From a virus, in the IMG/VR virus record IMGVR_UViG_3300034071_003115, positions 1-64,000 of that record: a stretch of 64,000 nt of DNA; one strand, 5' to 3'. Position 1 is the first letter of the stretch. Each line of letters begins with the position of its first letter. The notes under the pieces were generated by a model. It made no database searches and was not told the origin of the DNA. It worked only from the letters and a program-made list of their open reading frames with translations. Below are positions 8,623 through 50,620 of the stretch, piece by piece. The translations under genes were made by a program, and so were the position numbers.

Positions 8623-9018
8623 GTGAACGGAATCTACGAAACGCTGTTTAGCAAGCTTGGTGGCGACGCAACTTTGCAGTCGCTGCTCGGCGGCACCAGC
8701 GGCGATAAGAAGATTTACCCGATCACCGCAACAGTTCGAACTGCCTTGCCAGCCGTGAAGATCTCGGTGGAAGGCGGGGAAACCGAAGTCGGCTTTAGTA
8801 TCAATAAGCCGAGCGTAGAGGTAATGGTGGTTTCGACTGCCGGAGCCACTGAGCTTGGCCAGATATCAAACCGAATCGATACCCTGCTAAACATTCAGAG
8901 CTTTGCCGGATCGGGGATTAAGGTCCATCTCGTTAAGAAAGTTGCCGAGCGAGATGAGTATGATGAGGCGACATTGGAGTATCGAAGGCGCCTTCGGTAC
9001 AACATGATAGTTAGATGA
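8623..9018 (+). CDS. tail terminator/completion protein
   Basis: Size, position before tail tube, L..DATL..L...IYP, C-terminal YRRRLRY. Confidence 0.7.
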   Translation: MNGIYETLFSKLGGDATLQSLLGGTSGDKKIYPITATVRTALPAVKISVEGGETEVGFSINKPSVEVMVVSTAGATELGQISNRIDTLLNIQSFAGSGIKVHLVKKVAERDEYDEATLEYRRRLRYNMIVR

Positions 9019-9031
9019 GGAGTAACGCAGC

Positions 9032-9583
9032 ATGCTGACACTAGGATCAGGCACACTTTCGGTTGCGCCTTGGGTTTCCGGGGCCAATCCCGCGGACCTT
9101 CCCACGACCTACACGACGCTCTACACCATCGGCGAAGTCGGTGGCGATGTTGAGTTCCGCGTGGAGTTCCAGGAAGCAGAGTTCCGCGGCCAGTCGAATT
9201 TCGTGATTGCACGTGGCTACTACGGTGGCAACGTCACGGCGTCGGCTCGTTCGGTTGAGATTAACTTTGAGAATCTTGCTCGGTTCTTCACCGCAGCCAA
9301 GACGACGCTTTCAACCGGCACGAACGGCATCACCGGCACTCACAACGTCTTTACGACGGAATACGACGACAAGCCATCAGCGATGTATGTGAAGTTCACC
9401 CACACGCGAACCGATGACCCAAACAAGAAGGTGATTGTTCACCTCTTCAAGGCGTTCTCGACCGCTCTGAACTTCCCATTCATGCGTGAGGCCATTTCAA
9501 CGATGGACATTGACTTCAATGCCATTGTTGACACGACCCTCACCGCTGGCGATCAGATCATCCGCGTGGAGATCGAGAGCTAA
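9032..9583 (+). CDS. major tail tube protein
   Basis: Position, GEVGGDVEF motif, strong RBS, followed by terminator and chaperones. Confidence 0.75.
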   Translation: MLTLGSGTLSVAPWVSGANPADLPTTYTTLYTIGEVGGDVEFRVEFQEAEFRGQSNFVIARGYYGGNVTASARSVEINFENLARFFTAAKTTLSTGTNGITGTHNVFTTEYDDKPSAMYVKFTHTRTDDPNKKVIVHLFKAFSTALNFPFMREAISTMDIDFNAIVDTTLTAGDQIIRVEIES

Positions 9584-13300: not shown

Positions 13301-16300
13301 CCGCAATTGCAACAGCCGCAGGCGAGTCTGTTGTTAAAGAGGCTAAGAAGGGCAGAGCTGCCACCGGAACAAGAGCGGCTGCTGCAACTAGGGCGGCGCA
13401 AGAGGCTGCAGTTCCAGCCATTGCTGCTGGCGGTGCTGGCGGCGGCGGTGGCGGGCGAAGAGGGAGAAGGACTGCGGTAGCCCCCGGCGGACAGCCTGCT
13501 GGCGTTCCGCCAATTGGTGGTAAAAACGTATCGTCAATGAACAAGAACGCGGCTGCGATGGCGCAGCTATTTGGCGCACTTTCTACAATTGCACCGGTAT
13601 CCCCTAAGAAGCTGAGCGATCTAAGGGCGACAATCCGCGGACTTGCCGAAATGATGGCAGAGCTCCGTGGTATTTCCGGTGGAAAGATTACAACCAAGGG
13701 ACTCGCTGCGGCCCTTGGAAGGCAGGCGGCAGTGGCCACGCCAATAATGGCAGCTGGGGCTGGCGGTGCGGGTGTTGGTAGGGGGGCGACGGGAACTGGC
13801 GGTGGAGGTGGCGGCGGCGGAGGCAGTGGAAGATTCCTACCAGGATTTATGCCTGTTGGCGGACAAGAGATTAGGAATGCAGAAAAAGAAGCCGCACGCG
13901 GTATTGAGCGACAATCTGGAATTCTTGGAAGATTTGTTGATCAGATAAAATTCGGATTTAGCCAGCAGATAGTTGGTCAGATCAGCCAGGGCGTTGGTTC
14001 GCTCCTGTCGCACCTCCAGGGCGGAATTATTGGATTCAATGCACAGCTCGAAAACTCTGCGGTTGCATTCCAGACACTGTTTGAAAACGAGCAGAAGGCA
14101 ATGGGAGCAACGAATGTTGATATTACCAAGGCATCAGATCAGGCAGATACACTTGTAAAGTCTATTCAGCAGTTTGCAAACGTAACGCCGTTCAGATTCC
14201 CTGAACTTGTTGAATCAGCAAGAAGGATGCGCGCGTTCGGTTTCGAAACAAAAGAAATCATGCCAAATCTTCAAATTATTGGTGACGCTGTTGCGGCGCT
14301 TGGCGGAGAAGACGACAAGCTAAACCGAATCACTTATGCACTTGGGCAGATGAAGCAATCTGGTCGCGTATACCAAAACGACATGATGCAGCTGGCAAAC
14401 GCAGGTATTGCTGGATACGAGCTCCTTTCAAAGGCCGTCATGAAACAGATGGTCCAACAGGGAGAGGCAACAATAAGCTACTATGACTCCGTAAAAAAGC
14501 GAACCGTAACAATCACTAAAGAGATGCTCACCTCAACAGACAGGGACGCAAAGCTTGCAGCAGAATCTGCCCTTAATGCGCAGGTCAACAGGTTTGTAAA
14601 GCTTGGCAAGGAGGGCGCAAGGCAGCAATACGGAATTTCCATGCAAGCGGCAAAGGGCGCTAAGGGAATTTCCAAGGAAACCGTAGATCTTATTTTGAAT
14701 CAAGGACCGGTTCAGGCAATGCGAGTACTTTCAAAGCGAGGAAAAATTGAAGGAGCCGCAGCTGCAAGAAAGATCCTTGAGGAGATGTCGCTTGTCTTCG
14801 GCGGAGGAATGGAGAAGCTCTCAAGGACATTCCAGGGAGCACTTTCTACACTTCAGGACACAAGCCAGTACATGGTTGCGGTCGTTACAAAGCCAATATA
14901 TGACGGACTTAGAGATGTCATGTATGACATCGGCCTTGTATTCCAGTCAAGGGCCGCAAGAACAGCAACTGCAAACTTTGCCTCACAGTTCAGTGGAATG
15001 CTTGATGAAATTGCCCCAACCCTTCAGGCAACAGTTCAAATATTCCAGAAGTTTGGGGAAGGGGTTATCAGGCTTTTCACCGCACTCGGGCAAGGCGGAG
15101 GATCTGGCGTATTTGCAGTAATCGGAGACGGAATAAGGGCGATATCCGAGCTGATGAGGATAGACTTTGTCAGGGCCGCCGCGGTTGCGGCGCTTGCAAT
15201 GAGGGGAATTGCCCTGGCGTTCAACACAAACCCAATTCTTCTTGGTATAACAGCCGTGATCGCTGCATTCGGCGTGCTCTCAAAGGAATATGCTCAAAAC
15301 AGCGCGTTCAGAGGAGTAGTTGACAACTTTGCGGTTCCAATGCAGGGGCTTGTTCGCGAAGTTCAGTCCAAGCTTGTTCCTGCCCTTCAATCCCTTGCGT
15401 CAGGTGCTGGCGGTGCGTTCTTCGCTGAGCTGATCACTGGAATTACGCTTGTAATGCCGCTAATAAGCGTATTTATACGGCTGCTGAACATCTTCCTTGA
15501 GCTCCTTACAAGTATACCATTTGCAGTAGAGGCAATTGGGGCTTCTCTTGCGATTTTGGCAACCGGTAAGCTTTTTGGAAAACTTCTTTTTGGTTCCGCT
15601 GCAAAATTTGGTCCCGCAGGAGAGCTTATCAAGGCACCTTCTGGCGGTGCACTTGGAGGCCTCCAGAAGCTCTTTGGCTCACTTGGTGCGTTTAGCGCAG
15701 GAACTGTTGCCTCCAGACAGGCATATCAGATGGGCGCTCCGCTTGCCAACAAGGCAAGAACTGCGGCTGGTGAACTTAAGATTCAAAAAGTGGTCATGCA
15801 GAAGGTTGTTGACCAGACCGGAAACGCTTTCAGCCCCGTTCAAAGACAAAATATTTCAGCAACAGTTGCAGCAGCGCAGGCGCAAGTTTCCGCAACAGCA
15901 CAGACGGCGCAGGGCGTAAGGAACCTTTCTGGGGTCGGTGGATCAAGACTTATTGGGGTTGCGGCACGGCAAGAATACATGTCCGGAGTCAGTGCCCTTG
16001 CAACAAGGGATACCCCAATAGCAGCCAGGCTGGCAGGTTTCGGCGCAGACCTTAAGTCTACTGGGGGATTCTTCAGGAATGCAGTAAGCGTCTTCAAGGA
16101 AAGTATCTCCACTTTTGCAAGGTCTATTGGCGGTGCCTTTGCGGGGCTTAGAGGAGCTTCTGCTTCGAGGGCTGCGGCAGTTGGATTGGCGGGCGGACCC
16201 CTAAGGCCAAGCATAGAGCGCGGAATCGGGGCATACCTCAGCACAAAAGGGGCAAAAAATGTTGTTCAGGATAGTGGTGGATTTGCTAACGCACTAAAGA

Positions 16301-18717
16301 CTGGGGCGGGCGGACTTGCAGCACTAGGAAAGTCCCTGAAAGACGGGCTTGGACTGGTTGGTAAGTCTACCGTTCTTTTGACCGGCTTCTTTGCACTGTT
16401 TGACATTTTTGTCAACAAGGCAGATGTTATTAGGACGGCAATTTCATCTATAACATCCGTTATTGGCGGACTAGCTGGATTCCTGCTCGGGGGTCCAATC
16501 GGCGCCATCATCGGCTCAATGCTCGGGTCAGCGGCAGGCGGAGTGATATCTGATGCCGTTGGAAGACCGCAATTCCAAGACGGAGAGGTTGCTGGCGAAG
16601 GCGTTGAGATGGACATGACCCAGGCACAGATGGAGCAAGAAATCTGGAACAACGCATTGACAGACGGCAAGATGACGTTTGCCGAGATGGTTTCAATTGC
16701 CGAACAAATTCCCCTTAAGGTTGACGACATTGTTACGTCATTCAAGGCCCTAAATCCGGAAATCGAATCAATAAATTTCGGAATTAAAGATGTTCTTGCT
16801 GCGCTCAATGAGGCTGGCGGTTCGCTTAGCGCAGAAGAGGCGTTCACGAACGCGGCGGCACCTCTTGGCCTAAATACCAAAGAGATGCAGCAGAATATGG
16901 TTCTGCTAGACAACATTCAATCAATGATTCAGAAGGTTTACGAAAACAAGCTTGCGTTTGAGTTTAAGACGCCAATCAGAAACGAATCGGGCGGAATAGT
17001 AAACAATCAGCTTGCAAATCTTGCCGCAATGAAGGCTCAGGCTGAAATTGTCGCCGCGGTAATGCAGGCTGGCCCGTTCACAAACGTAGACCAACTAAAC
17101 CAAATGCTAGATACGCTTGCAAGCCGATTTATGGTAAGCAAAGAGCAGGCAGAGCAGTGGAATCTTCTCATCAATGGTGCTGAAGACTCAACTGAAGGCC
17201 TTTCAAGGGCAATTGAGAAGCTTAACGAAAAGCTTTCCTTCCTTAAGGCTAAGTTCAACATAGCATCCGGAGCCCTGCAAAACAGAATTCAGGCTCTGTT
17301 TGACAAGAGATTCAAAGAGCAGCTTGAGAAGGCAAAAGAGGCGTTCCTTGCAACCCAGGAAGTCATTGTCGAGGGAACGACCTGGAACCTTAAGGCACTT
17401 AAGGACGAAATTGAGGAGCAAGAGAAGAAGAATAGACTGCTCGCTGTTGAGAAAAGCCTTCGAGATGCAAATAGAAACATAGAAATGGCACGGCTTGCAC
17501 TCTACGACGCATCTATTGATCCGCTTGAAGCTGCGGCAAGAATGCGAGAGGCCGAAGAGGCAAAGACTGATGCCGTAAAGCAGGCTGCGCTTGAGAGAAA
17601 GAGAATTGCCCTTGACGAGGCAATGGCAAGCGAACCGGTAACCAGGGGACTTGAGGAAATTGACGAGAGGTTTGAGGCGATGAGAATGAAGTTCCAGGAA
17701 GAGATGCAAAGAATCATGCTTCTCTTGGAACAAGGAAAAATTACAGGCGCAGAGGCAATTGCGAGAATTAAGGCCCTATACGGTCAATCGTTTGCAAGTA
17801 TTGGCGACCTTGATGCGGAGCTTGCCGAAGATGCTGCCAATTTTGGGGAGTCATTCTTGGGGTCCTGGACAAAGACAATTGAAAAATTCATCAAGCTTGC
17901 AGATAAGATTGCCAAGCTTGTCAAGAAAATCAAGCAGCTGCAAAACTCGCTTAACAACCCCGGAACAGGAGCCAATGACGATGACCCAGGAGGACAGTAC
18001 ACAACTCCGCCTGGGTCTGCTGGAAACGGTACATCAACGCTTGGCGGAAGGCCGTACGACAACTGGAGAGAGCATGGCGTCGGTGCTCAAATGGAAAAGC
18101 AGGTTGAGTCAGATGCCGCAGGGATGCAGGTTACCGCAAACAAGATGACTCTCGGTGCCCTAAGGCTGAGATTCATGACACTTTGGAAAGAAGTTCAAGA
18201 TAGCGCAAAGAAAATGGCGCCAACAGGAATTTCTCCAACGGTTTGGGGGATTACACATTCAAATGCGCTAAAGATGTTCCTTGTTGGCACTGAGATGAGA
18301 AGGCTCTTTGCAACATCGATGAGCGTCGCACCGTCCTCAGCAGATTCTATACAGAAGCAGTTTGAGGTGCAGGTCACAAAGCTCAAGTCCACACTTAGCC
18401 CGCTTGGGAAGTATAACCCTGTTGCCGGTTTTGCAAGCGGCGGAACTATGATGGGCCCTGGTATATTTAGGGTAGGCGAGGCTGGCACGGAAACAATGCA
18501 GGTTACCCCGTATGGTGTCGCCAGGGTGTTCCCAAGGACATATCGACCAATACACGGCATTAGTGCAGCTGGCGGTAGCACATCCGGAGCGGTAAACGCA
18601 AGTGTTATAATCAACAACCCAACTGTTAGAAGCGACCAAGACATCAGGAAGCTTGCCGAAGAAGTCTCAAGGGCCCAAAGGTCACTGTTGAGGTCGTCAG
18701 GCGTAGGAAGGATCTAA
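10333..18717 (+). CDS. tape measure protein (2794 aa) with long basic N-terminal extension
   Basis: FNAQLENSAVAF..FANVTPFRFPEL..IGDAVAALG..ITYALGQM tape-measure motif, TM/Gly-Ala region, C-terminal FASGG...VGEAGTE. Confidence 0.9.
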   Translation: MSDKDYDAFFGADDVGTNYKESANLREEGYVEQLLTTLNYGNRLSGDDEIDVASAFNMMRPVDAERLAHRILLGDKSALVSSIPAVQDGLNTVRRVSEAMGPSWDQERKITLEVVRSSINEKISKQNKASGKSKDPYVDQITKRIGKRVAERKLSTKNPQQILDALYRELASTSGLNPYQRYKLLGAVGRGPLGKADAKSRGFNSAMLDLVKKNGVQGVRAAASILSLLGGKGMEGLRFDKKGNPTNLRSLIQGTGKDVSIPGSVQGLIKDDLTVISREAARLMAADRRMTAEKALSQALQNIREGKALTVKRQVTVKATGKRVMVGGDARKKRQMWISGKAPISIPDTANGIRQFEDALSRGLSDRSGFASAFVSAIASSKSTASNIRSLAKQRQAAARQKIARKETSAKRVSAATSRIKDPFAALANFQDFEGAVHKSPIRAYAAIRKDLDYYKRLLSQNGPDFFNSFEGQAIVGRVQGHLSLLRALSDSFGSKEYRNLTSKERGAAWFATGDPDLKRAVTLVKERRKNLSQDDKNLLFTVASLAGTSKTRGLMPMVQMAEDIASGKLQFRTPREKMTTEQLIQRDAPKFRAGLKKYNERTSKLFEAIKKGKFDEKIVNHLGSEETPLNVSEYDFIIQRSGGRFAGKVRNQFLRGDKNATSRRKILEEAAGKLVDNYKKAIATATSSPGIQSTEAARAAGLELTRVLPSLHRAYLTLGGEDGVILTGRSSREIRSSAIAKPAVIVKQSGSFLASSPAFMGAFLSRFMPKVTEERYSTSLIGPNPEFAKYKKEILDPMRKKRGIAELQKEEKRLGKISETLKRKLALIERRPAGTESARKQKEAAIALITKESEQHRQKVIALGRKIEKTGYTAALKNAPPAFLTEQIPSSKPTVKGTFARLAVLLSGEGAKYGLYGTREGKQFQRMQAQGDVSVATGAANQALQQLAADIAANISPAARKEIAKQERADARAAKKAEATAAAVDQSAAAIATAAGESVVKEAKKGRAATGTRAAAATRAAQEAAVPAIAAGGAGGGGGGRRGRRTAVAPGGQPAGVPPIGGKNVSSMNKNAAAMAQLFGALSTIAPVSPKKLSDLRATIRGLAEMMAELRGISGGKITTKGLAAALGRQAAVATPIMAAGAGGAGVGRGATGTGGGGGGGGGSGRFLPGFMPVGGQEIRNAEKEAARGIERQSGILGRFVDQIKFGFSQQIVGQISQGVGSLLSHLQGGIIGFNAQLENSAVAFQTLFENEQKAMGATNVDITKASDQADTLVKSIQQFANVTPFRFPELVESARRMRAFGFETKEIMPNLQIIGDAVAALGGEDDKLNRITYALGQMKQSGRVYQNDMMQLANAGIAGYELLSKAVMKQMVQQGEATISYYDSVKKRTVTITKEMLTSTDRDAKLAAESALNAQVNRFVKLGKEGARQQYGISMQAAKGAKGISKETVDLILNQGPVQAMRVLSKRGKIEGAAAARKILEEMSLVFGGGMEKLSRTFQGALSTLQDTSQYMVAVVTKPIYDGLRDVMYDIGLVFQSRAARTATANFASQFSGMLDEIAPTLQATVQIFQKFGEGVIRLFTALGQGGGSGVFAVIGDGIRAISELMRIDFVRAAAVAALAMRGIALAFNTNPILLGITAVIAAFGVLSKEYAQNSAFRGVVDNFAVPMQGLVREVQSKLVPALQSLASGAGGAFFAELITGITLVMPLISVFIRLLNIFLELLTSIPFAVEAIGASLAILATGKLFGKLLFGSAAKFGPAGELIKAPSGGALGGLQKLFGSLGAFSAGTVASRQAYQMGAPLANKARTAAGELKIQKVVMQKVVDQTGNAFSPVQRQNISATVAAAQAQVSATAQTAQGVRNLSGVGGSRLIGVAARQEYMSGVSALATRDTPIAARLAGFGADLKSTGGFFRNAVSVFKESISTFARSIGGAFAGLRGASASRAAAVGLAGGPLRPSIERGIGAYLSTKGAKNVVQDSGGFANALKTGAGGLAALGKSLKDGLGLVGKSTVLLTGFFALFDIFVNKADVIRTAISSITSVIGGLAGFLLGGPIGAIIGSMLGSAAGGVISDAVGRPQFQDGEVAGEGVEMDMTQAQMEQEIWNNALTDGKMTFAEMVSIAEQIPLKVDDIVTSFKALNPEIESINFGIKDVLAALNEAGGSLSAEEAFTNAAAPLGLNTKEMQQNMVLLDNIQSMIQKVYENKLAFEFKTPIRNESGGIVNNQLANLAAMKAQAEIVAAVMQAGPFTNVDQLNQMLDTLASRFMVSKEQAEQWNLLINGAEDSTEGLSRAIEKLNEKLSFLKAKFNIASGALQNRIQALFDKRFKEQLEKAKEAFLATQEVIVEGTTWNLKALKDEIEEQEKKNRLLAVEKSLRDANRNIEMARLALYDASIDPLEAAARMREAEEAKTDAVKQAALERKRIALDEAMASEPVTRGLEEIDERFEAMRMKFQEEMQRIMLLLEQGKITGAEAIARIKALYGQSFASIGDLDAELAEDAANFGESFLGSWTKTIEKFIKLADKIAKLVKKIKQLQNSLNNPGTGANDDDPGGQYTTPPGSAGNGTSTLGGRPYDNWREHGVGAQMEKQVESDAAGMQVTANKMTLGALRLRFMTLWKEVQDSAKKMAPTGISPTVWGITHSNALKMFLVGTEMRRLFATSMSVAPSSADSIQKQFEVQVTKLKSTLSPLGKYNPVAGFASGGTMMGPGIFRVGEAGTETMQVTPYGVARVFPRTYRPIHGISAAGGSTSGAVNASVIINNPTVRSDQDIRKLAEEVSRAQRSLLRSSGVGRI

Positions 18718-25143: not shown

Positions 25144-25401
25144 TTGAAGGAGATGGAAATGTCAGTTAGTGACATGCTAGATGAAATGCGCAAGGACTCC
25201 GCAAAGAAGGGCCCATCGTGCGCAATCGGCTTGACGTACACGCGTCTTGCCGTTCAAGAGCAAACCGCCTTCAAGGAGGCGATGAAAGACGAAACGATTC
25301 AGTCGACTGCGATCGCTCGCTGGCTGGGTCAGAAAGGATATTCCGTGAAGCCGCATACGATGTCTCGGCATCGTCGCGGTCAGTGCGGGTGTGAACGATG
25401 A
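25144..25401 (+). CDS. small HTH/Zn protein upstream of phosphoesterase
   Basis: C..G; IARWLGQKGY....MSRHRRGQCGC. Confidence 0.7.
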   Translation: MKEMEMSVSDMLDEMRKDSAKKGPSCAIGLTYTRLAVQEQTAFKEAMKDETIQSTAIARWLGQKGYSVKPHTMSRHRRGQCGCER

Positions 25402-26603
25402 GCGAAGAATTTGAAAAAATACTCGCGGTTCAGCGAGATATGGAAAACGCAAAAAAGCCAAGGCGACAACACCCAGAAGGGTGGGAGCCAGGCGTGCAGT
25501 GGAACGGCAACGAGGGGACTGTTACGACCACTGGAATGCCAGCAGAAAATGCACCAGACTGGGCAACGGTTCTTAGAGTTTGGGGTCTTGACCCTGAACA
25601 CTTTGAGGTTGTTGAGCCAGTGCTATTCAATGTCTGGGGAGACACGCTTGGCGTATTGAATCGACAATGGAAGGGCAAGGTTGTCCGAAAGGTCGCCTCG
25701 ATGGGCTCAGATGTCCAGGAGATGGTTGAGGAGATTAAGAAGCACAAGTTCTCCAGGCCAGAGGTTTCATCAGACGGTAGCGCAATGATTGTCGCGATAT
25801 CAGACCTGCAGCTCGGCAAGGGCGAAAACGGCGGAAGCGTCAAGATTGTTGAACGATTCCTTGCTGGGATTAATGAGGTTGAAAATCGCTGGAAGGAACT
25901 AAGGAAGTTTGGCAGGCCGCTATCACGTTTAGTTGTTGTTGGCCTCGGTGACATCATCGAGAACTGCGACGGGCACTACGACATGCAGGCGTTCCAGGCA
26001 GACCTTGATCGTCGAGAGCAAATTACGGTTGCCCGAAGGCTGGTTACGAAGGCCATTATGCAGTGGTCTAAGTTTGCCCCAGAGGTGATCGTTGCTTGCG
26101 TGCCTGGGAACCATGGTGAAAACAGGCGAGGCGGTAAGGCGTTTACAACCTTTGGAGACAATGACGACGTTGCCGTGTTTGAGCAGGTGGCAGAGATTCT
26201 TTCCGCCAATCCAGACGCATTTGGACACGTCAAGTTTGTGATTCCAAAGAATGACTTGACCCTGACGCTTGACGTCTACGGGACGGTGGTTGGGCTTGCC
26301 CACGGGCATCAGGCTCGACGAGGCGGCAGCAATGCAGTAGGAAAAGTGGAGAATTGGTGGGCAAAGCAGGCTCTTGGCATGCAGCCTGTATCCGATGCCA
26401 CGCTTCTCTTGACGGGCCACTACCATCACCTTGCGATGTCAACGCATGGTGCAAGAACGCATATCCAGGCCCCAAGCCTTGATGGTGGCTCTCAGTGGTA
26501 TAAGGAAGTTGCTGGAGTTGACGCCCCGACTGGGATTCTTACCTTGGTGGTAGATTCAAACGGTTGGGACGATATGAAGGTTTTGCGCTGTAAACTGAAT
26601 TAA
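25398..26603 (+). CDS. calcineurin-like metallophosphoesterase
   Basis: SDLQLGK, GLGDIIE, PGNHGE, AHGH, GHYHH. Confidence 0.9.
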   Translation: MSEEFEKILAVQRDMENAKKPRRQHPEGWEPGVQWNGNEGTVTTTGMPAENAPDWATVLRVWGLDPEHFEVVEPVLFNVWGDTLGVLNRQWKGKVVRKVASMGSDVQEMVEEIKKHKFSRPEVSSDGSAMIVAISDLQLGKGENGGSVKIVERFLAGINEVENRWKELRKFGRPLSRLVVVGLGDIIENCDGHYDMQAFQADLDRREQITVARRLVTKAIMQWSKFAPEVIVACVPGNHGENRRGGKAFTTFGDNDDVAVFEQVAEILSANPDAFGHVKFVIPKNDLTLTLDVYGTVVGLAHGHQARRGGSNAVGKVENWWAKQALGMQPVSDATLLLTGHYHHLAMSTHGARTHIQAPSLDGGSQWYKEVAGVDAPTGILTLVVDSNGWDDMKVLRCKLN

Positions 26604-37922: not shown

Positions 37923-38579
37923 ATGACAACAAGTAGCACCGAAGTTGTATACCTGGAGGACATCATGTGGGGCGAGAGCAAGCCGCCGCAGGACCTCGAA
38001 AAAGCGCTTCTAGGCGTTGGAATCCCAAAAAGGTACTTAGACAGCACCTTCGCCAATTTCGAGGCGCAGGGTGGCTCTAAGACGGCCCTTGAGGCCTCAA
38101 TGGAGTGGGCAAAGGCACCGATTGGGGAGCGGGGCCTTCTTTTTGTTGGGCCGCCAGGTACGGGAAAGACCCACCTTGCCGTGGCGTCAGTCCGAGAGAA
38201 AGTTGCCGCTGGTCTTGGTGGAGTTCGCTTTATCAATGTGCCGATCTTTTTAGATCGGATTCGCCAGTCAATGAAGTACAATGATCCAGAAGTCATGAAC
38301 TTGTTTGACTTTTGTTTGACACGCGCAAGCGTCGTGGTCCTTGATGATCTTGGGAAGGAGAAGGCAACCGACTGGGCGGCAGAGCGACTCTACGTCCTTG
38401 TTGAGAGCCGATATAGTGCCTGTCTCGCGACGATCGCCACGACGAACCGCGGCCTTGACGAACTCGATGCCCTTGGATATGGGGCTCTCATCTCCCGACT
38501 ACAGCAGACCTGTCGCGCCATCAAGGTGGGCGGGGATGACCAGCGTATCAGGCTTGGAAGGCTGGACGGAAGGGCTTGA
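37923..38579 (+). CDS. DnaC/IstB-like helicase loader ATPase
   Basis: GIPKRY..STFANF, GPPGTGKTHLA, VVLDDLGKE, TTN. Confidence 0.9.
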   Translation: MTTSSTEVVYLEDIMWGESKPPQDLEKALLGVGIPKRYLDSTFANFEAQGGSKTALEASMEWAKAPIGERGLLFVGPPGTGKTHLAVASVREKVAAGLGGVRFINVPIFLDRIRQSMKYNDPEVMNLFDFCLTRASVVVLDDLGKEKATDWAAERLYVLVESRYSACLATIATTNRGLDELDALGYGALISRLQQTCRAIKVGGDDQRIRLGRLDGRA

Positions 38580-38931
38580 GATTGTCCTTGTAGGAAGACC
38601 GCCATCATGGAACCGCGCGTATCGCGTTGCGGGCAAAATCATCTACATGACACGAGAAGCAAAAGCATGGAAGGAGATCGTGACATATGCGACACAGAAA
38701 GCGTTAGTCACAAGGCCGGACTTCCTGCCGGTAGACGGGAAGAGGATTGTCATCGACATCTGGGCGCATTTGAAAAGACCGATGGATGCTGATAATCTAT
38801 TGAAGCTAACGCTAGATGCGGTAGCGGCTGGATTGGTCGTCAATGACCGATGGTTTATCCCACGAGTTTGGGAAATGGAATTTGGAGCAGCGGAAGAATA
38901 TGTCCGACTGGTCCTAAGTCAGGAGAAGTGA
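38536..38931 (+). CDS. rusA: RusA-like Holliday junction resolvase
   Basis: PPSWN..Y, DADNLLKLTLDA...VVNDR. Confidence 0.8.
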   Translation: MTSVSGLEGWTEGLEIVLVGRPPSWNRAYRVAGKIIYMTREAKAWKEIVTYATQKALVTRPDFLPVDGKRIVIDIWAHLKRPMDADNLLKLTLDAVAAGLVVNDRWFIPRVWEMEFGAAEEYVRLVLSQEK

Positions 38932-38932
38932 A

Positions 38933-39310
38933 ATGGCAAAGGAAAGGATTGAAGTAACTGGCAGGCTTGGAAGCAAGCCAGAACTTCGCAGCACCAAGAC
39001 AGGAAAGAACGTTTCATCGTTTAGCGTTGCAGTGAAGAACAAGCGCGGCGGCGAAGAGACCACCAATTGGTACGACGTATCCATTTGGGAGAAGCAGGCA
39101 GAACTTGCTGTACAGCTGCTCGACAAGGGTGATCTTGTGTGCGTTGAAGGCGTTCCGTCCGTGAAGACTTTTCAGACCCGCAGCGGCGAGTCCAAGTCTT
39201 CCATTCAGATCACGGCGCGCACATTTGATCTTCTTGCCAAGGGCAAGGGTGCCGCTGGCGCAGTCAAGCAGGCCGCGCCTGAAGAAGACTTTTCCGAGGT
39301 TCCGTTCTGA
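38933..39310 (+). CDS. ssb: single-stranded DNA-binding protein
   Basis: GRLGSKPELR, FSVAV, W...AE..LDKGDLVCVEG, acidic C-terminal EVPF. Confidence 0.92.
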   Translation: MAKERIEVTGRLGSKPELRSTKTGKNVSSFSVAVKNKRGGEETTNWYDVSIWEKQAELAVQLLDKGDLVCVEGVPSVKTFQTRSGESKSSIQITARTFDLLAKGKGAAGAVKQAAPEEDFSEVPF

Positions 39311-43869: not shown

Positions 43870-44112
43870 GCATTTCCGGGGCTTCTGGAAGGCCCTCCGC
43901 AAGCGATTATAGAACCGCCAACCCCTCGTCTGTAAAAAAATCCGCCGCGTCCCTAGTCGCACGGTGGGGGAGGGGGGTCGAGGACGCATTCTGGGGGTTG
44001 GGAGCATCCTCCGGATGCTACACGCCCCCAAAGAAAGCACGATCAAGACCATAGGCGATGATGGGGTCAGCGGTGGCGTTGCCGCCGCGGTGGTAGTTAG
44101 GAGGTACGCACA

Positions 44113-44496
44113 ATGTACGCAATGCTCTTGCTTCTTTCGCCGATGGCGGCGGCGGCTCTTTCTTTCGTTCTCCGCGGTGATGCGGTGCTCTCGGTTCTCT
44201 TCGGTTTCGCGGCTCTCGGCGTTGTATCGTTCGCGGGTTTCGTTTACGAGTTCGGTGATCTCGCAATGGAGCACCGCTACGCGAAGAACCCACGCGAGGC
44301 AGACGGCGAGGTGGTCGCGTTCGGTCTGGTGTGCGCGGTGTCTGGAATCGCTGGCACGGCGATCTCGTGGCTCCTGGGTGCGGGCGATGCGATGTCGCTC
44401 CTTCTGGGTGTGGCGAGCGTGGGCGCGGCGTGGCTCGCAATCTTCGCGGTGGTCGTTGCCGATGAGAAGATGCGCCGCCGCTACGGCAAGCGATAG
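44113..44496 (+). CDS. 4-TM membrane protein (cassette A0)
   Basis: RBS AGGAGGT; hydrophobic segments. Confidence 0.7.
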   Translation: MYAMLLLLSPMAAAALSFVLRGDAVLSVLFGFAALGVVSFAGFVYEFGDLAMEHRYAKNPREADGEVVAFGLVCAVSGIAGTAISWLLGAGDAMSLLLGVASVGAAWLAIFAVVVADEKMRRRYGKR

Positions 44497-44760
44497 CACA
44501 CACACGAAACGCAACCGCCCCCGTCCTCCGCGAGCGCGCGGAGGGCGGGGGCTTCTTTGTACCTATGTGACTTCGGTGGCGGTCGCGCCCCCTGGGGCTG
44601 CTGTTCTATATGTAACTCACAGTATGAATATAAATAACAAATAACATAATAAGTTCGATGGACTCGCCTCCGGCGAGTACAGACCGAGTATGAAAACGCT
44701 ATTGTATGAGTGCGCGATGATGAGGGCGAGCCACCGAAGGCTCGGAAGGGAGACAATGGT

Positions 44761-45045
44761 ATGACTTGGCATCGACCTGATGAAGGCTGCGACGTCACCG
44801 TACGCGGTGATGCTGATGACGTCATCACGATCACTTGCGTGAATACGGAAGGCGTGATGAGTCCGAAGCCGCACCGCTATCACGTCACGCTAAGCGCGAA
44901 TGCGAACGCGCTGATGGTGATGGAAGCGGATGGCTACGGCGGCATCCACTACTTCAGTGACGCTGAAGCGAAGCGGGTGCTGATGGAAGACGAAGTCTGG
45001 TACGAACTACCAGCATTCTTCCGCAATAGAATCGTCTGGCAATAG
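44761..45045 (+). CDS. hypothetical protein (cassette A1)
   Basis: RBS GGGAG; MTWHRPDEGCDV... Confidence 0.6.
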   Translation: MTWHRPDEGCDVTVRGDADDVITITCVNTEGVMSPKPHRYHVTLSANANALMVMEADGYGGIHYFSDAEAKRVLMEDEVWYELPAFFRNRIVWQ

Positions 45046-45106
45046 CGTGATGGTGATGCGCGGCGAATGCGACGCCGCGCATCACTTCACTGAAGGGAGA
45101 ATCACA

Positions 45107-45427
45107 ATGGTGAAGCACGTGAACCCGATCGAATGGAAGTTCGTGTATGAGCATCGCTCGACGCTGACGGAGCGCGAGAATCGCACTAGGATGGAAGCAG
45201 AATCCGATCGTGTATCGGATAGGATCGTGAAGGCTATCGAAGCGATTCGGAAGGATCGTCCATCGTCGTGGATCGACGAACTCGATACCCGCGCATTCTT
45301 CATTCTGAAGGACGCGCTCGATCCGATCGGATACGAAGTGTTGCGTCAGGATGAGGACGGCGCGTGGATCGTACGCGAACGATGGAATACTGGAACGGAC
45401 TGGAACGCACGACTGGTCATCGTCTGA
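45107..45427 (+). CDS. hypothetical protein (cassette A1)
   Basis: RBS GGGAGA after leader hairpin. Confidence 0.65.
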   Translation: MVKHVNPIEWKFVYEHRSTLTERENRTRMEAESDRVSDRIVKAIEAIRKDRPSSWIDELDTRAFFILKDALDPIGYEVLRQDEDGAWIVRERWNTGTDWNARLVIV

Positions 45428-45683
45428 TCGGCCTCCCCCCGTTCACCGCAGGCGCGGTGGGCGGGGGGAAGTTCTTTCGCAACCCCCCGGGTGCTGCTGT
45501 TCTATCTCTAACTGGCTGACTATAAGTAAATAACATAACAACATAAGTTCGACAGGCTCGCCTCCGGCGAGTACGACGCCGCTAAAAGAACGCGAATCAA
45601 CATCTAGGAGATGATGGAGCAGCCGCGGACGCGCGGTGTGATGAATGCGACATCACAATGGTCTAGCAGAAAGGTGGCTTGGA

Positions 45684-45995
45684 ATGATCAAGACAATCGG
45701 CGAAGCGATCGAAGCGCTTCGCAAGGTGGTAGCAGAAGCGCAAGACATCTTCGCGGAAACGGAGAATCTTGTCGCGAAAGCAGAAGCGATTCTTTCGCTC
45801 GCAACGATCACGGGAAGCGCTGGTGATGCGATCAAGGCAAGCGAGAATGTTGGCGCTAGTAGAATGGCGTACCTTCGCGCTCGTCTCGAATTGGAGAAGC
45901 AGCGATTCTACCTTTCGCAATTGGAGAAGGTAGCAGCCGAGAAGGGTAACGACTGGGAAGGCAACAAGGGAATCCAAATCCAGTCGATTCAGTAA
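45684..45995 (+). CDS. coiled-coil protein (cassette A2)
   Basis: RBS AAGGTGG; MIKTIGEAIEALRK... Confidence 0.6.
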   Translation: MIKTIGEAIEALRKVVAEAQDIFAETENLVAKAEAILSLATITGSAGDAIKASENVGASRMAYLRARLELEKQRFYLSQLEKVAAEKGNDWEGNKGIQIQSIQ

Positions 45996-46230
45996 GGACT
46001 TCCCCCTCACCGCGGACGCGCGGTGAGGGGGATGGTTCTGTCGCGGCCCCCCGTGCTGCTGTTAGATGTGTAACCCACAAGAGATATATAAGTAACAATA
46101 TATAAGTAATAAGTTCGATAGACACGCCTCCGGCGCGTACTAGCTGAGAAGAAATACCGCGCCGTATCAATAGGGGATGATGTGCCTAGCCCCGATAGCA
46201 AGGGCGCTGCAGCAATAGGGGGATACGCAA

Positions 46231-46461
46231 ATGGGCAAGCGGATCAACCGCAAGCAAGCGATAGACCGCATCAAGGAGCGTCTACCGTTTGTTTCGCACA
46301 CGGGAAATTTCCGCGGCGAATTGATCGGTACGCAATACATGGTGTATTCGTACCGCGTATGCATCGCGGATTTTACCAATGGCGCGTGGAGCATTGACCC
46401 CACGCGATGGAGCGCGACAACATCGCGCCATCAAGGCATCGTGCGCCGCGCGATCGCCTAA
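46231..46461 (+). CDS. small conserved phage protein (cassette A3)
   Basis: YMVYSY..IA, WSATTSRHQ. Confidence 0.7.
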   Translation: MGKRINRKQAIDRIKERLPFVSHTGNFRGELIGTQYMVYSYRVCIADFTNGAWSIDPTRWSATTSRHQGIVRRAIA

Positions 46462-46734
46462 CGGATCGGCCCGCGTATAAAGGCGGGCGAGGCAAGGGAG
46501 CAGGGGGACGAGAGAGCCCCCTGCTCGCTCCTTTATTTTTTTCTCTTTTTTTATCCAGAGCCAAGGTGGCGGTCACACTCTCTTGTGGAATATAAGTAAC
46601 TAAATATAAGTAATAAGTTCCACGGCCTCGCCTCCGGCGAGTACGACACCAGAAAAAGAATCTCTCCGTATGACTCGGCGATGATGGTGTCAGCGGCGCT
46701 GCTGTGGCGTCGCATCAGTACGGGAGGGAACGGT

Positions 46735-47076
46735 ATGGAATCGCTATTGGCACTGATCGCCACGCTAGGCGGCGTGACGGTACGCGCGCGCGGAATGCGC
46801 GCAGTGAATCCTGCACGCGGGTACGCAGTAGGGTCGACTGATCGCACTGCGATCCTGCTGCCGCTCGACACCACGGAACGCGCACTACGCACTGCACTAT
46901 TGGAATGCGCAGTGCAGTACGGTACGCGTCACGCAGGCGCGTGGGTCGAGGATGGGATGATTCACGTTGACCCCACCACGATCATCAGCAGCAGGCGCGC
47001 TGCGCTAGGCACTGCGAAGGCGAATCGTCAGCGTGCGATCTACGGATTCAAGGAACGCGAAACGATCTACGTCTAG
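46735..47076 (+). CDS. small phage protein, possibly SAM-lyase-like fold (cassette A4)
   Basis: GAWVEDG.IHVD...A.......RQRAIY. Confidence 0.55.
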   Translation: MESLLALIATLGGVTVRARGMRAVNPARGYAVGSTDRTAILLPLDTTERALRTALLECAVQYGTRHAGAWVEDGMIHVDPTTIISSRRAALGTAKANRQRAIYGFKERETIYV

Positions 47077-47333
47077 CAGGCATCCCCCCAGCCGCAAGGT
47101 CCCGCGGCTGGGGGGATTGCTCTATCGCGGCCCCCTCCATCCTGCTGTTAGATGTGTAATCTCCATGTGCAATATAAGTAACATAATTCATATCACGTTC
47201 GATGGGCCCGCCTCCGGCGGACACAGGTCGAGAAAAAGAATCTCGATGTACATCCGTGCGATGCTGGTGGTACCGCCGACGGGTGGGGCGAGCAATGCGA
47301 GCTCGCAATTGGTTAGTGAACAGGAGGTTCAAC

Positions 47334-47606
47334 ATGCCAAAGGAGTTGAGGTCATTCATGATCCTCGTCTCAAAGGTCGTTGAGGGCGAGATCGCCGTCA
47401 TCGCAGAGACCGAGGAGAAGGCACGCGAGATCGCAATGGATCTTGCGTCGAATCACCCAGACACTTACCTCGACAACGATACGGATGTCGTTGTCGACTC
47501 AGTCCGCAGCGCCAGCGATCACGATCTCGAGTATCTGATCTTCAACGGCGCCAACGGATCTGAGTGGGACGCAAAGAGGCTGATCAAGATGTCCTTCGAG
47601 AAGTAG
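47334..47606 (+). CDS. small acidic protein with V.AETEEKA motif (cassette A5)
   Basis: RBS AGGAGGT. Confidence 0.65.
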   Translation: MPKELRSFMILVSKVVEGEIAVIAETEEKAREIAMDLASNHPDTYLDNDTDVVVDSVRSASDHDLEYLIFNGANGSEWDAKRLIKMSFEK

Positions 47607-47883
47607 TACCGAGAACCCCAGTCGGCAGCGGACGCGCTGCTGGCTGGGGTTTCTTTTTGCCCTGCACAAAGCTCTACCTCGGCCCCCTGGGGCCTGTAGT
47701 TCTATATCTAACACACAATATGAATATAAATAAGAGCAATAAGTTCCATGGCCACGCCTCCGGCGTGTACGACCTCGGCCTAAAAATCTCAATCAACAGA
47801 AACGCGATGATGGGGTCAGCGGACGCGGTGCGGCATGAGCCGTTGCGACACCGAAGTGCGCGGTAGCAAAAAGGAGGACAGAG

Positions 47884-48285
47884 ATGTCCGAGAAGGAACG
47901 CTCGCAACAGCGCGCAAACCTCTTCGCTGAAGTCGTCAGTGAAGTCGTGAATCCAGTCGTGGCTCAAGAGGAGCGCACGCACGAATGGGAGTTCATCGCC
48001 AGAGACGCTGACGATGACTACGATGATGTTGCGTGGTCGTTGCACAATGGTTCACGAGAAATCATTGAGCAGTACGCAGCAACAAAGAGCACTGGCGCGG
48101 ATGCGATGTACGTCCTTGAGAAGCCTCACAAGTTTCTTGATGGCGTTGCGGAGTTCATTGAGAACATGGACGTCGCAACTTCAGAGAAGGAGTACATGAC
48201 TCGCAAGTTTGGTTATTGGCATTGTATGGAGTGCGACGCTGAAGCGTACTCTATTGAGAGCGGCGACGAGGAACCCTGCGAGTAG
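47884..48285 (+). CDS. acidic hypothetical protein (cassette A6)
   Basis: RBS AAGGAGG. Confidence 0.65.
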   Translation: MSEKERSQQRANLFAEVVSEVVNPVVAQEERTHEWEFIARDADDDYDDVAWSLHNGSREIIEQYAATKSTGADAMYVLEKPHKFLDGVAEFIENMDVATSEKEYMTRKFGYWHCMECDAEAYSIESGDEEPCE

Positions 48286-48363
48286 GAATCTCGTCGCAGT
48301 TCAATCAAACGAGGTGCGAGCGAATGCGACGCTCGCACCTCACCATCAGTGAAGGAGAGAATC

Positions 48364-48672
48364 ATGTTCAAGTCAGACGGAAAGAAGATCAAACTCAACG
48401 CGTTCGGAACGGATTACACGGCGGAGATTCTTGTTGATCAGTATCACAACGGCAACACTGCCGTTGTGTTGTACACAGAGCACGAGCCACTGTGCTCTCT
48501 CTCTGTGAACACTGAGAAGATTCTTCCAACGGGTCACTTCTACTTGAAGGAGTGGTCAGAGAATCTTGAGATCGCTCACAATCAGAGCGTTCAGGAGATC
48601 ATCAAGGAGTGTGGTCAGCATGAGGACTACGCTTCTGGATACGTCGTGGCACGCTGCTTCACGATCTCCTAA
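48364..48672 (+). CDS. DUF4313-like protein (cassette A6)
   Basis: Y.NGNTAV.L...EP...LSVN, KEWSEN, SGYV. Confidence 0.6.
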   Translation: MFKSDGKKIKLNAFGTDYTAEILVDQYHNGNTAVVLYTEHEPLCSLSVNTEKILPTGHFYLKEWSENLEIAHNQSVQEIIKECGQHEDYASGYVVARCFTIS

Positions 48673-48933
48673 AGTCTAGCCCCCCTTCCACCCAGCGCGG
48701 TGGGAGGGGGGTTAGTTATACCGCGGCACCCTGTGCTGCTGTTAGATCTCTAACCCCCTCACAATGTAAATAAATAAATAAGAGGAATAAGTTCCACGGG
48801 CGCGCCTCCGGCGCGTACGGCCCGAGAAAAAAAATCTCACGGAGTAGAAGCCTGATGATGGGTGCAGCGGCGGCACTACGGCGAAGGAGCCGATGTGATG
48901 GTGAAGCGTCGCAGGTAGCATTGGAGGTTCACG

Positions 48934-49293
48934 ATGAGTGCAATGAAGCGCATTGCAATCGCATTGGAGCGTGGTGCTCAACTCACCACGCACGATTGGA
49001 AGTTTGTTGAGAATCGCAGCAACTCGCTGCAAGCGCGTGTCGCATACGCGCAACTTCTCAACGAGTATGTTGTCGAGTTTGCGCGAACGCTCGACACCGC
49101 CGACCACGCGGTCGACGCAATCGAATCGCCGCACGATTACGCGGGAGAGATTGCCGCGTGGTTGTCGGAGAATCGCGACGAGCACGACGAGGAGATTGCT
49201 GCTCTCGGTCGATGGGAGTGCGCGGATTGCGACGCGGTTGCAACGCGTATGGACATCTACATCGACGAAGCAGAAACCTGCATCGTTGAGTGA
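48934..49293 (+). CDS. hypothetical protein (cassette A7)
   Basis: RBS GGAGGT. Confidence 0.6.
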   Translation: MSAMKRIAIALERGAQLTTHDWKFVENRSNSLQARVAYAQLLNEYVVEFARTLDTADHAVDAIESPHDYAGEIAAWLSENRDEHDEEIAALGRWECADCDAVATRMDIYIDEAETCIVE

Positions 49294-49353
49294 AGCAAAG
49301 GAGTGTGGAAGCGCGCGGCGCTTCCACACTCCACAAGTTTGGAGGACAGCACA

Positions 49354-49674
49354 ATGAGCAAGAAAGCAAAGCAAACAAAGCGCACAGCAACGGAGTCGAT
49401 CGGCGTGATCAACAAGTTGCTTGCACGCAGCATTGAGCAGCGCGCGCTTGCTGCCGATGTTGTCGAGTTTGAGCGCGCAACACTCGTGGAACTTGCGATC
49501 GAGTCGAAGCCAAACAAGAAGTTGGTTGCGAAGTCGGAAGCGGCACTCGCAACGGCAACGGCAACGCTCGCATACTTCGAGGAGAACACGCGCACGCTGC
49601 AAGCGAAACTTGCAAGCGCGATGAAGTCGGTTGCGAAAGCAACAGCGAAGCAGCGCGACGCTGCTAACGCGTAA
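49354..49674 (+). CDS. Ala/Lys-rich helical protein (cassette A7)
   Basis: RBS GGAGGA. Confidence 0.6.
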   Translation: MSKKAKQTKRTATESIGVINKLLARSIEQRALAADVVEFERATLVELAIESKPNKKLVAKSEAALATATATLAYFEENTRTLQAKLASAMKSVAKATAKQRDAANA

Positions 49675-49732
49675 TCACAGCGGGGTGCGGGCGCGCGGCG
49701 CTCGCACCTCGCAACAGCATTGGAGGTTCACG

Positions 49733-49954
49733 ATGTTTGACGATGACGGAAATCTTTCTTGTGAGTGGTGCCACGCAACAGAATCGGAAACAGAGATCAA
49801 AAAGGAGTGGGACGATCACGAGGGAAACAGCGTCACGATTTATGGAAGCAATCGAAACGCGCTTGCTCTTTGTCGTCAATGCTTCTACGAGTCGCAACTC
49901 GACGAAGCAATCAGCGATCTCAAAGAGGTTTATCGCAAACTCGCGGAAGGTTGA
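49733..49954 (+). CDS. small Zn-finger protein (cassette A7)
   Basis: CEWC...LCRQC; RBS GGAGGT. Confidence 0.6.
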   Translation: MFDDDGNLSCEWCHATESETEIKKEWDDHEGNSVTIYGSNRNALALCRQCFYESQLDEAISDLKEVYRKLAEG

Positions 49955-50018
49955 TCAAACAAATGCGGGGTGCGGGCGCGCGGCGCTCGCACCTCGCGCA
50001 AGCATTTGGAGGTTCACG

Positions 50019-50399
50019 ATGTTTGAGTGTGAAGCACACGGACAATGCGCGATGACGGACAAAGGAGAGTGCCAAGAGTGCTGCATCGACGAGCAGCGAT
50101 GTGAGGAGTGCGGAATCGAGGAAGGCACTCCGCACGCAGCGAAAGTTTCTTTCCGCGACACGATCGAGCAAATGCTTTGCGACGATTGCGTCGAGTGTGA
50201 GGATTGCGGAACAAGCGCTTTGTCGAGCGTTGAGCCGAACAGCGACTTCGACGCGATTCTTTGCGAGGAGTGCGTCGAGGAGCGCGAAGCAGAGTGGCAG
50301 CGCGACGAGGAGGAGCGCAAGGAGCGCAACCTCGATTACGCGTCGAAGCGCGAGGACGAAACCGATCCGTTGACGCAGCACGAGGACGGCTGGCGCTAA
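50019..50399 (+). CDS. acidic multi-CxxC protein (cassette A7)
   Basis: CQEC, CEEC, CDDC, CEDC, CEEC; RBS GGAGGT. Confidence 0.65.
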   Translation: MFECEAHGQCAMTDKGECQECCIDEQRCEECGIEEGTPHAAKVSFRDTIEQMLCDDCVECEDCGTSALSSVEPNSDFDAILCEECVEEREAEWQRDEEERKERNLDYASKREDETDPLTQHEDGWR

Positions 50400-50620
50400 C
50401 GGAGTCCTCCCCCCGTTCACCGCAAGCGCGGTGGGCGGGGGGAGGCTCTAACGCAGCCCCCTGGGTGCTGCTGTTAGATGTCTAACACACAAGCGATAAG
50501 TAAATAACATAAATAATATAAACGGGGAATAATATAAGTTCCAACATTACGGGCCGCGGCCCGTAATGCCCCCACAAATGTTATGCCCCCGCAAGTCCCA
50601 GACCTGCGGGGGCTAGTTAG

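Follow-up and report, generated by a model that had tools for sequence, protein, structure and literature searches.

Comparative analysis points to a promoter-phased DNA hairpin in the small-gene cassettes of an uncultured lake phage

We analysed the first 64 kb (hereafter the window) of a linear, 79,109-bp viral record from IMG/VR (IMGVR_UViG_3300034071_003115; 94% complete), in which eight plus-strand modules within 5 kb each combine a short hairpin with a downstream GATGAT-type box at the head of a cassette of small genes. Comparison with related genomes points to the hairpin being a real DNA-level element that is phased with the promoter. The box is most likely, as judged from the aligned promoters, the -10 element of a -35-less promoter read by the host RNA polymerase (RNAP).

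We consider it rather probable that the head of every cassette forms a composite regulatory module in a siphovirus dependent on host RNAP. Such a module would run from an intrinsic terminator through an AT-rich block, GTTC, a 5–7-bp GC hairpin, an A-rich/GAATC box and GATGAT to a 5' RNA stem-loop and a ribosome-binding site (RBS). The hairpin would display the invariant loop C-TCC-G, that is, C-GGA-G on the template strand, and GATGAT would act as a sigma70-family -10 hexamer, with transcription starting ~7 nt after it. Centred at about -58, the hairpin would lie upstream of both promoter classes described below, in helical register with the -10 element, and a phage factor would probably help initiation, as at -35-independent middle promoters. 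The repeated modules would double as crossover sites that shuffle cassettes, as in the promoter-early stem-loop (PeSL) cassettes of T4-type myoviruses.

Results

Class A hairpins are conserved in structure and spacing

A capsid-protein search placed the window phage in a large family of uncultured freshwater phages, from which nine complete or near-complete genomes were compared with it (G000): three sister phages (G001–G003; capsid 90–92% identical to that of G000) and six further relatives (71–76% capsid identity). We distinguish class A modules, with a C-TCC-G triloop hairpin and, in G000, a GATGAT-type box, from class B modules, with a palindrome and the promoter TTGAC-N17-TAGAAT.

The first-pass annotation, made from the letters of the window alone, had reported eight plus-strand stem-TCC-stem hairpins and eight GATG(A/C)TG boxes, the boxes beginning exactly 47 nt after the loop start. 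All of them lie where they had been placed, and the spacing is exact in 8/8. The pattern GCCTCCGGC has seven plus-strand copies against 0.67 expected, a number that none of 100 shuffles reached; the eighth hairpin copy has a different stem. The cargo proteins of these modules have no Pfam family and only weak PHROG matches of unknown function. The hairpins, all on the plus strand, are as follows.

Hairpin 1, 44003..44019, plus strand, loop start 44010: AGCATCC-TCC-GGATGCT, the differing copy; first of the array, without the upstream AT-rich half
Hairpin 2, 44662..44678, plus strand, loop start 44669: (A)CTCGCC-TCC-GGCGAG(T)
Hairpin 3, 45557..45571, plus strand, loop start 45563: CTCGCC-TCC-GGCGAG
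Hairpin 4, 46123..46137, plus strand, loop start 46129: CACGCC-TCC-GGCGCG, with one top-strand A/C mismatch (G.T on the bottom strand)
Hairpin 5, 46627..46641, plus strand, loop start 46633: CTCGCC-TCC-GGCGAG
Hairpin 6, 47206..47222, plus strand, loop start 47213: G-C-CCGCC-TCC-GGCGG-A-C, with a C/A mismatch at the sixth pair
Hairpin 7, 47753..47767, plus strand, loop start 47759: CACGCC-TCC-GGCGTG
Hairpin 8, 48801..48815, plus strand, loop start 48807: CGCGCC-TCC-GGCGCG

Each sister carries 9–11 C-TCC-G triloop hairpins in a homologous array, with GTTCGA and TAAC-rich repeats upstream; their 5-bp stems are of the types GCCGC, GGCGC, GACGC, AGCGC and GCCCC. The covariation first seen among the window stems extends to them: when 27 copies were aligned (8 from G000 and 19 from G001 and G002), none of 500 shuffles reached the observed score. 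The inner five pairs are 99% Watson–Crick, with 40 cells changed on both sides, and C-TCC-G is invariant in 27/27 of these copies as well as in the 11 hairpins found in G003. Covariation together with the invariant C-TCC-G indicates, at the level of sequence, that the class A hairpin is a selected structure. With N4 promoters it shares a template-strand G-N-A triloop closed by C-G, a 5–7-bp stem and covarying free bases.

In-stem mismatches occur only in the copies with loops at 46129 and 47213; they read A/C on the top strand and hence G.T on the bottom strand, from which bottom-strand folding had been proposed. Both copies do fold better as bottom-strand DNA (-5.8 vs -3.8 and -5.8 vs -5.3 kcal/mol, respectively), but two events are weak evidence for strandedness, and the case for the template strand as the folding strand is suggestive at best. 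The template-strand loop reads GGA in all class A copies, and most G003 class B loops read CGGA on that strand; loop sequences are constrained, in part strand-specifically.

In G001 and G002, a second hairpin, ATAGAAC-TTC-GTTCTAT, lies ~65–75 nt upstream of each triloop hairpin, with GAA or GTA loops on the template strand. Its half-site ATAGAAC also forms the right flank of class B palindromes, and the matching place in the window reads GTTCTAT or GTTAGAT..TAAC. A protein may recognize the GTTC/GAAC half-sites as its motif.

The GATGAT box as a -10 hexamer

The boxes stand at the place of a -10 hexamer. In the list below, the first coordinate of each box is also the start of the GATG[AC]TG match.

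Cassette 1, 44057..44062, plus strand: candidate -10 GATGAT; gene 44113-44496
Cassette 2, 44716..44721, plus strand: candidate -10 GATGAT; genes 44761-45045 and 45107-45427
Cassette 3, 45610..45615, plus strand: candidate -10 GATGAT; gene 45684-45995
Cassette 4, 46176..46181, plus strand: candidate -10 GATGAT; gene 46231-46461
Cassette 5, 46680..46685, plus strand: candidate -10 GATGAT; gene 46735-47076
Cassette 6, 47260..47265, plus strand: candidate -10 GATGCT; gene 47334-47606
Cassette 7, 47806..47811, plus strand: candidate -10 GATGAT; genes 47884-48285 and 48364-48672
Cassette 8, 48854..48859, plus strand: candidate -10 GATGAT; genes 48934-50399

As the first-pass annotation had stated, there is no TTGAC between hairpin and box, and the promoters lack a -35 element: the corresponding place in the window cassettes holds AGAATC, AAAATC or AAAACG, and the trinucleotide before the hexamer is GGC or CGC. 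That GATGAT is nonetheless a -10 element finds support in the sister phages. Loop start and hexamer are 47 nt apart in 8/8 window copies and 43 nt apart in 29/30 sister copies. At loop+43, G001 and G002 have TATTCT, TACTCT or TATTGT and, less often, GATTAT, GATTGT or GATCAT, with CTGACT or CTGAAC 17 bp upstream of most of these hexamers. In G003, the hexamer is CATTCT or CACTCT, and TGn precedes 9/11 copies, forming an extended -10. A sigma70 -35 at 16–18 bp or a TGn extension is thus present in the sisters (CTGACT in G001 and G002; TGn in G003) and absent from G000.

The only near-invariant hexamer positions across the 38 class A promoters of the four genomes are A2 and T6: 37 promoters have both as placed, and the remaining one has them once shifted by 1 nt. 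Sigma region 2 flips out just these two bases of a -10 hexamer. In sliding-window folding, the strongest 22-nt RNA hairpin starts 8–12 nt after the hexamer start in class A modules of all four genomes, and the canonical TTGAC-N17-TAGAAT class B promoters give an identical profile. A purine occupies hexamer start +12 in 8/8 window copies, where the 5' stem-loop sets in, as in class B; in cassette 1, the predicted start lies near 44069 and is followed by the 5' stem-loop and RBS. Some class A leaders of G003 share the class B 5' module CGGCAGTTGCCG. The assignment of GATGAT as a -10 element therefore draws on the sister hexamers, on A2 and T6, and on the matching onset of the 5' stem-loop.

With neither a -35 nor TGn, the G000 version is the most degenerate of the four. 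Sequence comparison therefore suggests that the GATGAT promoters probably need an activator or sigma remodelling. Since class A promoters need no -35, their forming a separate temporal class is plausible.

Three other readings of the box region were discarded: a sigma54 reading of TGGCA in G003, dismissed on visual inspection for want of a conserved -12 GC; a sigma28-like reading of GCGATGA, for which the likeness is partial and the -35 does not fit; and a conserved peptide from short open reading frames (ORFs) starting at ATGATG, whose lengths and frames vary among copies.

A GTTC-hairpin-GATGAT core with floating upstream blocks

The first-pass annotation had seen (A/C)GTTC and an AT-rich block in seven copies. 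GTTC is indeed fixed at -17 from the loop start in 7/8, which is 6 nt before the 6-bp stem. The CTGCTGTT..TAAC block farther upstream has no such fixed place, its position ranging from -66 to -74; only the stretch from GTTC through the hairpin to GATGAT thus keeps an invariant spacing. Cassette 1 has no AT-rich block, yet keeps hairpin and GATGAT. Cassette 5 and the element that closes the array illustrate the remaining parts.

Upstream half of cassette 5, 46555..46626, plus strand: AT-rich TATAAGTAAC repeats and AAGTTC; other module copies also carry CTGCTGTT..AT.T.TAAC at variable distance
A-rich box of cassette 5, 46651..46664, plus strand: AGAAAAAGAATCTC at the -35 place, with equivalents at the same offset in other cassettes
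Ninth, chimeric element, 50467..50568, plus strand: class A upstream half joined at GTTC to a class B-type palindrome, CATTACGGGC-CGCG-GCCCGTAATG

The A-rich AGAAAAAGAATCTC box is a candidate activator site. The chimeric element is followed by neither promoter nor gene.

Hairpins of both classes are phased with the promoter and selected as DNA

In G000–G003, class B promoters are preceded by a perfect 10+4+10 palindrome in a GTTC-N3...N3-GAAC frame, with 14–17 per genome. The proposed equality of hairpin-to--10 distances holds, at 46 from the hairpin centre for both classes in G000; over the genomes, this centre stands ~42–46 bp upstream of the -10 in either class. The hairpin does not set class A apart, since class B promoters and the sisters have a corresponding inverted repeat in the same place. 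Among 59 class B promoters of the four genomes, the centre-to-hexamer distance is 42–48 bp in 53 and 55–57 bp in 6, with none at 49–54. On sequence grounds, this jump of one helical turn reads as the signature of a stereospecific, face-of-helix relation to the bound polymerase.

Non-Watson–Crick pairs number ~2/640 in class B and 1/100 among distinct class A inner pairs, whereas the terminator stems within these arrays show 16 G.U among 167 pairs. Their near-absence argues that selection on pairing acts at the DNA rather than the RNA level. Class B arms beside orthologous genes differ at ~2 positions between genomes, yet stay perfectly complementary.

This bears on an RNA-level alternative, which we regard as very unlikely. 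In it, transcription would start in the AT-rich TATAAGTA block, which resembles the T4 late TATAAATA, and the hairpin and GAUGAUG would belong to a long 5' leader, where an RNA-binding regulator would recognize them. TATAA(A/G)TA does occur in 7/8 modules, with two exact TATAAATA copies, and the leaders hold further conserved hairpins with an AATGCGA loop. However, the stems contain no G.U and both mismatches are A/C on the RNA-sense strand. The distance from AT-block to hairpin varies (28–42 nt), cassette 1 dispenses with the block altogether, no gp55-like or other sigma factor was found, and, if the block is read as TATAAG or TATAAA, its last -10 T is not conserved.

Both hairpin classes occur only in G000–G003. 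The six relatives with 71–76% capsid identity have neither, and keep consensus early promoters and the same 5' stem-loops. Since these relatives keep the same promoters, the hairpin appears from the comparison to be a clade-specific add-on outside the core promoter. As to what it does, docking of a clade-specific factor seems the likeliest single mode of action, though with less than an even chance; that supercoiling drives a cruciform or a template-strand mini-hairpin that gates initiation seems somewhat less likely still.

The AATGCGA hairpins are variable stems around a conserved heptaloop, seen in the window at 45047-45085, 45630-45660, 47283-47305 and 48310-48340. They sit just 5' of ribosome-binding sites, in class A leaders and between genes within operons, and the motif is conserved in G002 (GCGATG-AATGCGA-CATCGC, near 9020-9045 of the G002 sequence L213). 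They may be RNA operators for a translational regulator, or processing sites.

Pattern searches outside the family gave no arrays. In IMG/VR, the exact class A pattern returned only near-identical contigs and one chance match, and a scan for the CTGCTGTT..TAAC pattern returned single chance matches only. Across 185,579 species genomes, the class B pattern had no match and the class A pattern 16 single, chance-level matches, with such arrays in none of the bacterial genomes and no host clue. Against Rfam, nothing in 43–61.5 kb reached the gathering score.

Likeness to N4 is confined to hairpin chemistry

The first-pass annotation had likened C-GGA-G to the hairpins of N4 promoters and proposed hairpin-dependent promoters read by a phage factor or polymerase. 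The likeness stands for hairpin chemistry. It finds no support for promoter mechanism: no phage RNAP or sigma gene was found, and the hairpin lies ~58 nt upstream of the inferred start, whereas in N4 the hairpin, with its centre at -11, serves as the promoter of a virion RNAP of 3500 aa (PMC4496689). The chemistry still matters, as this loop type enables the short N4 hairpin to extrude at physiological supercoiling (PMC4496689).

We searched for such a polymerase at several levels. Sigma70 regions 2 and 4 (Sigma70_r2, r4) are absent, six-frame searches for a sigma factor or a T7-like RNAP were negative, and their only helix-turn-helix (HTH) matches were a region that is likely the small terminase, and an HTH protein of 117 aa. 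A PF00940 search had no match, although its control was uninformative. By sequence, neither the 2794-aa nor the 1667-aa virion protein has relatives in the PDB, the RNAPs of N4 and P23-45 included. All other ORFs are ≤717 aa. A polymerase fused to the tape measure, as in P23-45, was set aside: the tape-measure N-terminus lacks DxDxD, unlike P23-45 gp96, and the protein gives no PDB sequence match and only tape-measure domains. In the window, the tape-measure gene occupies 10333-18717; its recognizable tape-measure (TMP) domain starts at residue 1264, and the N-terminal 1260 aa have no assignment.

Recognition of the template-strand C-GGA-G hairpin by a phage, possibly virion, RNAP is accordingly among the least credible explanations considered here. 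Transcription would then start ~11 nt after the loop centre at a conserved TAC, with GATGAT acting as an element of the leader. N4 P2 has the same loop and closing pair (C-GGA-G), the stems here are 5–7 bp, GC-rich and covarying, and TAC or TATC is conserved directly after the stem; in Thermus phage P23-45 an RNAP is joined to a giant tape measure, which sets a precedent, and the tape measure here, at 2794 aa, leaves those 1260 N-terminal residues unassigned. Those residues, however, resemble ordinary helical tape-measure sequence besides lacking DxDxD, neither giant protein matches a solved RNAP by sequence, and there is no further ORF >720 aa. The sisters, moreover, show sigma70-like -35/-10 or TGn/-10 elements phased to the hairpin, and class B has a similar inverted repeat before consensus sigma70 promoters.

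Candidate factors

Phyletic profiling identified 23 proteins that share the distribution of the hairpins (G000–G003 only), too many to single one out. Among them is the 117-aa HTH_17/MerR-like protein (genome 69789-70142, minus strand; 8789-9142 of piece L122), which adjoins a large inverted repeat around GGTAC-GTA-GTACC (genome ~70360-70420) that G002 shares. This HTH protein is a candidate for regulating the cassette promoters.

Two more of the 23, likewise confined to the four hairpin-bearing genomes, are an 80-aa protein (25159-25401) and an exonuclease of 401 aa (25398-26603), which form an operon at 25159-26603 under a TTGAAA-N17-TATGAT promoter of their own. The exonuclease belongs to phrog_284, and its nearest Atlas clusters are named calcineurin-like phosphoesterase (metallophosphoesterase-like). 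This SbcD/Mre11-like nuclease co-occurs with ~25 palindromes per genome.

Cassettes are gained, lost and shuffled

A 98%-identical variant, IMGVR_UViG_3300012017_001157, lacks 47137-47670, which is exactly one whole cassette (cassette 6). The deletion junction falls in an 18-nt block shared by neighbouring modules, GCTCTA..CGGCCCCCT, located between terminator and CTGCTGTT, ~90 nt upstream of the hairpin. Lake metagenome populations show cassette-level joints, and cassette order is shuffled among G000–G003. Homology blocks between sister genomes stop at or beside the hairpins, with right ends at +8 to +26 in class A, and left ends at -33 to -9 and right ends at +19 to +28 in class B. A correlation analysis of whether module halves are inherited together with the gene before or after them was noisy and was not used.

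The hairpins and palindromes could accordingly be recombination elements only, which mark cassette borders and stimulate exchange without a role in transcription, through cruciform cleavage by a RusA-like resolvase or through plain homology. We judge this improbable. It would account for the ends of the homology blocks, the joining of the chimeric A/B element at GTTC and the gain and loss of cassettes, and a RusA-family Holliday-junction resolvase (Pfam E = 7e-8) is encoded at 38572-38931, between a DnaC-like loader and SSB (38933-39310). But that resolvase is also present in most hairpin-less relatives, the sole mapped deletion junction does not fall at the hairpin, and BLAST blocks are expected to end near conserved hairpin flanks anyway. 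Recombination alone also leaves the strict -10 spacing and its one-helical-turn jumps unexplained. Because site-specific recombinases are not encoded (PF00589, integrase; PF01797, Y1 transposase; and PF00239, serine recombinase, are absent), ordinary homologous exchange between the repeated modules is the economical explanation for the shuffling.

Genomic context

The window phage has no near match among the deposited phages searched and is present in many lake-water metagenomes. Its genes point to an uncultured freshwater long-tailed siphovirus reliant on host enzymes. The structural genes encode the 2794-aa tape measure, the 1667-aa tail fibre, portal, capsid, prohead protease and TerL, and the 35–43 kb region encodes a PD-(D/E)XK nuclease, the DnaC-like loader, the RusA-like resolvase, SSB and MazG; neither a DNA polymerase nor an RNA polymerase gene is in its gene set. 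The plus-strand cassettes of small genes occupy 44–50.6 kb, and minus-strand cassettes running from 70 to 50.7 kb converge on them. Class B cargo at 50.9–60.9 kb of the window (minus strand) includes DUF932, DUF3846 and a DUF1281/Api92-like protein, families that often occur in conjugative-element leading regions as well as among the early or anti-defence genes of phages.

Discussion

Several points weigh against the composite regulatory module that we favour. A GATGAT box that has neither -35 nor TGn makes, by itself, a poor sigma70 promoter, and no activator was identified. The cassettes are paralogous, so exact spacing and conserved bases may partly reflect common descent or gene conversion. 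The hairpin appears dispensable for basal promoter function, given that hairpin-less relatives share the core promoters, and that the two classes agree in the distance measured from the centre of the hairpin, not from its edge, fits recognition of the duplex as well as extrusion. The exclusion of an RNAP fold in the N-terminal 1260 aa of the tape measure is by sequence and motif only. The single RNA run contained ~5% of the words, in short contigs inside genes, and is uninformative on transcription starts.

Among the closest known counterparts is the PeSL system (PMC2839356, PMC4122927). There, too, intergenic modules recur that bring together an AT-rich region, a stem-loop, a sigma70-like promoter and a Shine–Dalgarno sequence; they flank small ORFans in a plastic region, and near-identical phages differ by cassettes that recombination between the copies adds or removes. 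The window phage shows the same traits, with promoter/stem-loop repeats flanking ORFans in a plastic region and cassette gain and loss among close relatives. In PeSL, however, the position of the stem-loop varies and it is read as a terminator or attenuator. Here, a separate true terminator precedes the module, and the extra hairpin is fixed, helically phased, centred at ~-58 and strictly Watson–Crick, with an invariant template-strand GNA triloop, in a siphovirus clade.

The N4 promoters P1–P3 (PMC4496689) share with class A a template-strand C-GGA-G triloop on a 5–7-bp stem whose free bases need only pair. They differ in that the N4 virion polymerase, for which no counterpart was found here, is aided by gyrase and host SSB, in that the hairpin here stands ~46 bp upstream of a sigma70-type -10, and in that N4's -8G is C here. 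We think it unlikely that, in this clade of freshwater siphoviruses, an N4-type, supercoil-extrudable GNA mini-hairpin on the template strand has been adopted upstream of host sigma70-RNAP promoters and gates initiation at ~-58, with the hairpin or cruciform serving as a supercoiling sensor of the injected genome or as a dock for a structure-specific factor.

A -10 without a -35 recalls the T4 middle promoters (AsiA/MotA) and the extended -10 middle/late promoters of P23-45 (PMC2988021, PMC10770324). In these phages, too, the -35-less class coexists with a consensus -35/-10 early class, and their factors exploit the contrast between -35-dependent and -35-independent promoters (PMC2988021, PMC10770324). 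As in T4, a conserved box replaces the -35, and the TGn of G003 parallels P23-45. Nonetheless, no AsiA, MotA or gp39-like factor was identified here, and the box (AAAAAGAATCTC) is unrelated to the MotA box. Integron attC sites offer a further likeness, in that hairpins of conserved structure and variable sequence lie between the cassettes of an array, with a hint of bottom-strand folding; the window phage differs in having no integrase, R/L core sites or extrahelical bases, and in that every cassette has its own promoter and terminator.

What is new here is the triloop class and its cross-genome promoter comparison. On a conservative reading, two promoter classes, one needing a -35 and one without it, are defined for an abundant lineage of uncultured lake phages, which also provides a second, non-T4 example of promoter/stem-loop cassettes driving the shuffling of accessory genes. 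If the hairpin acts on transcription, these would be host-polymerase promoters controlled by an extruded DNA mini-hairpin, a form of control so far known from N4's own polymerase, in a compact and portable module whose stem sequence is free to vary. Should the hairpin gate initiation, the structure of the DNA, and not its sequence, would set the timing of expression for ~25 accessory-gene cassettes.

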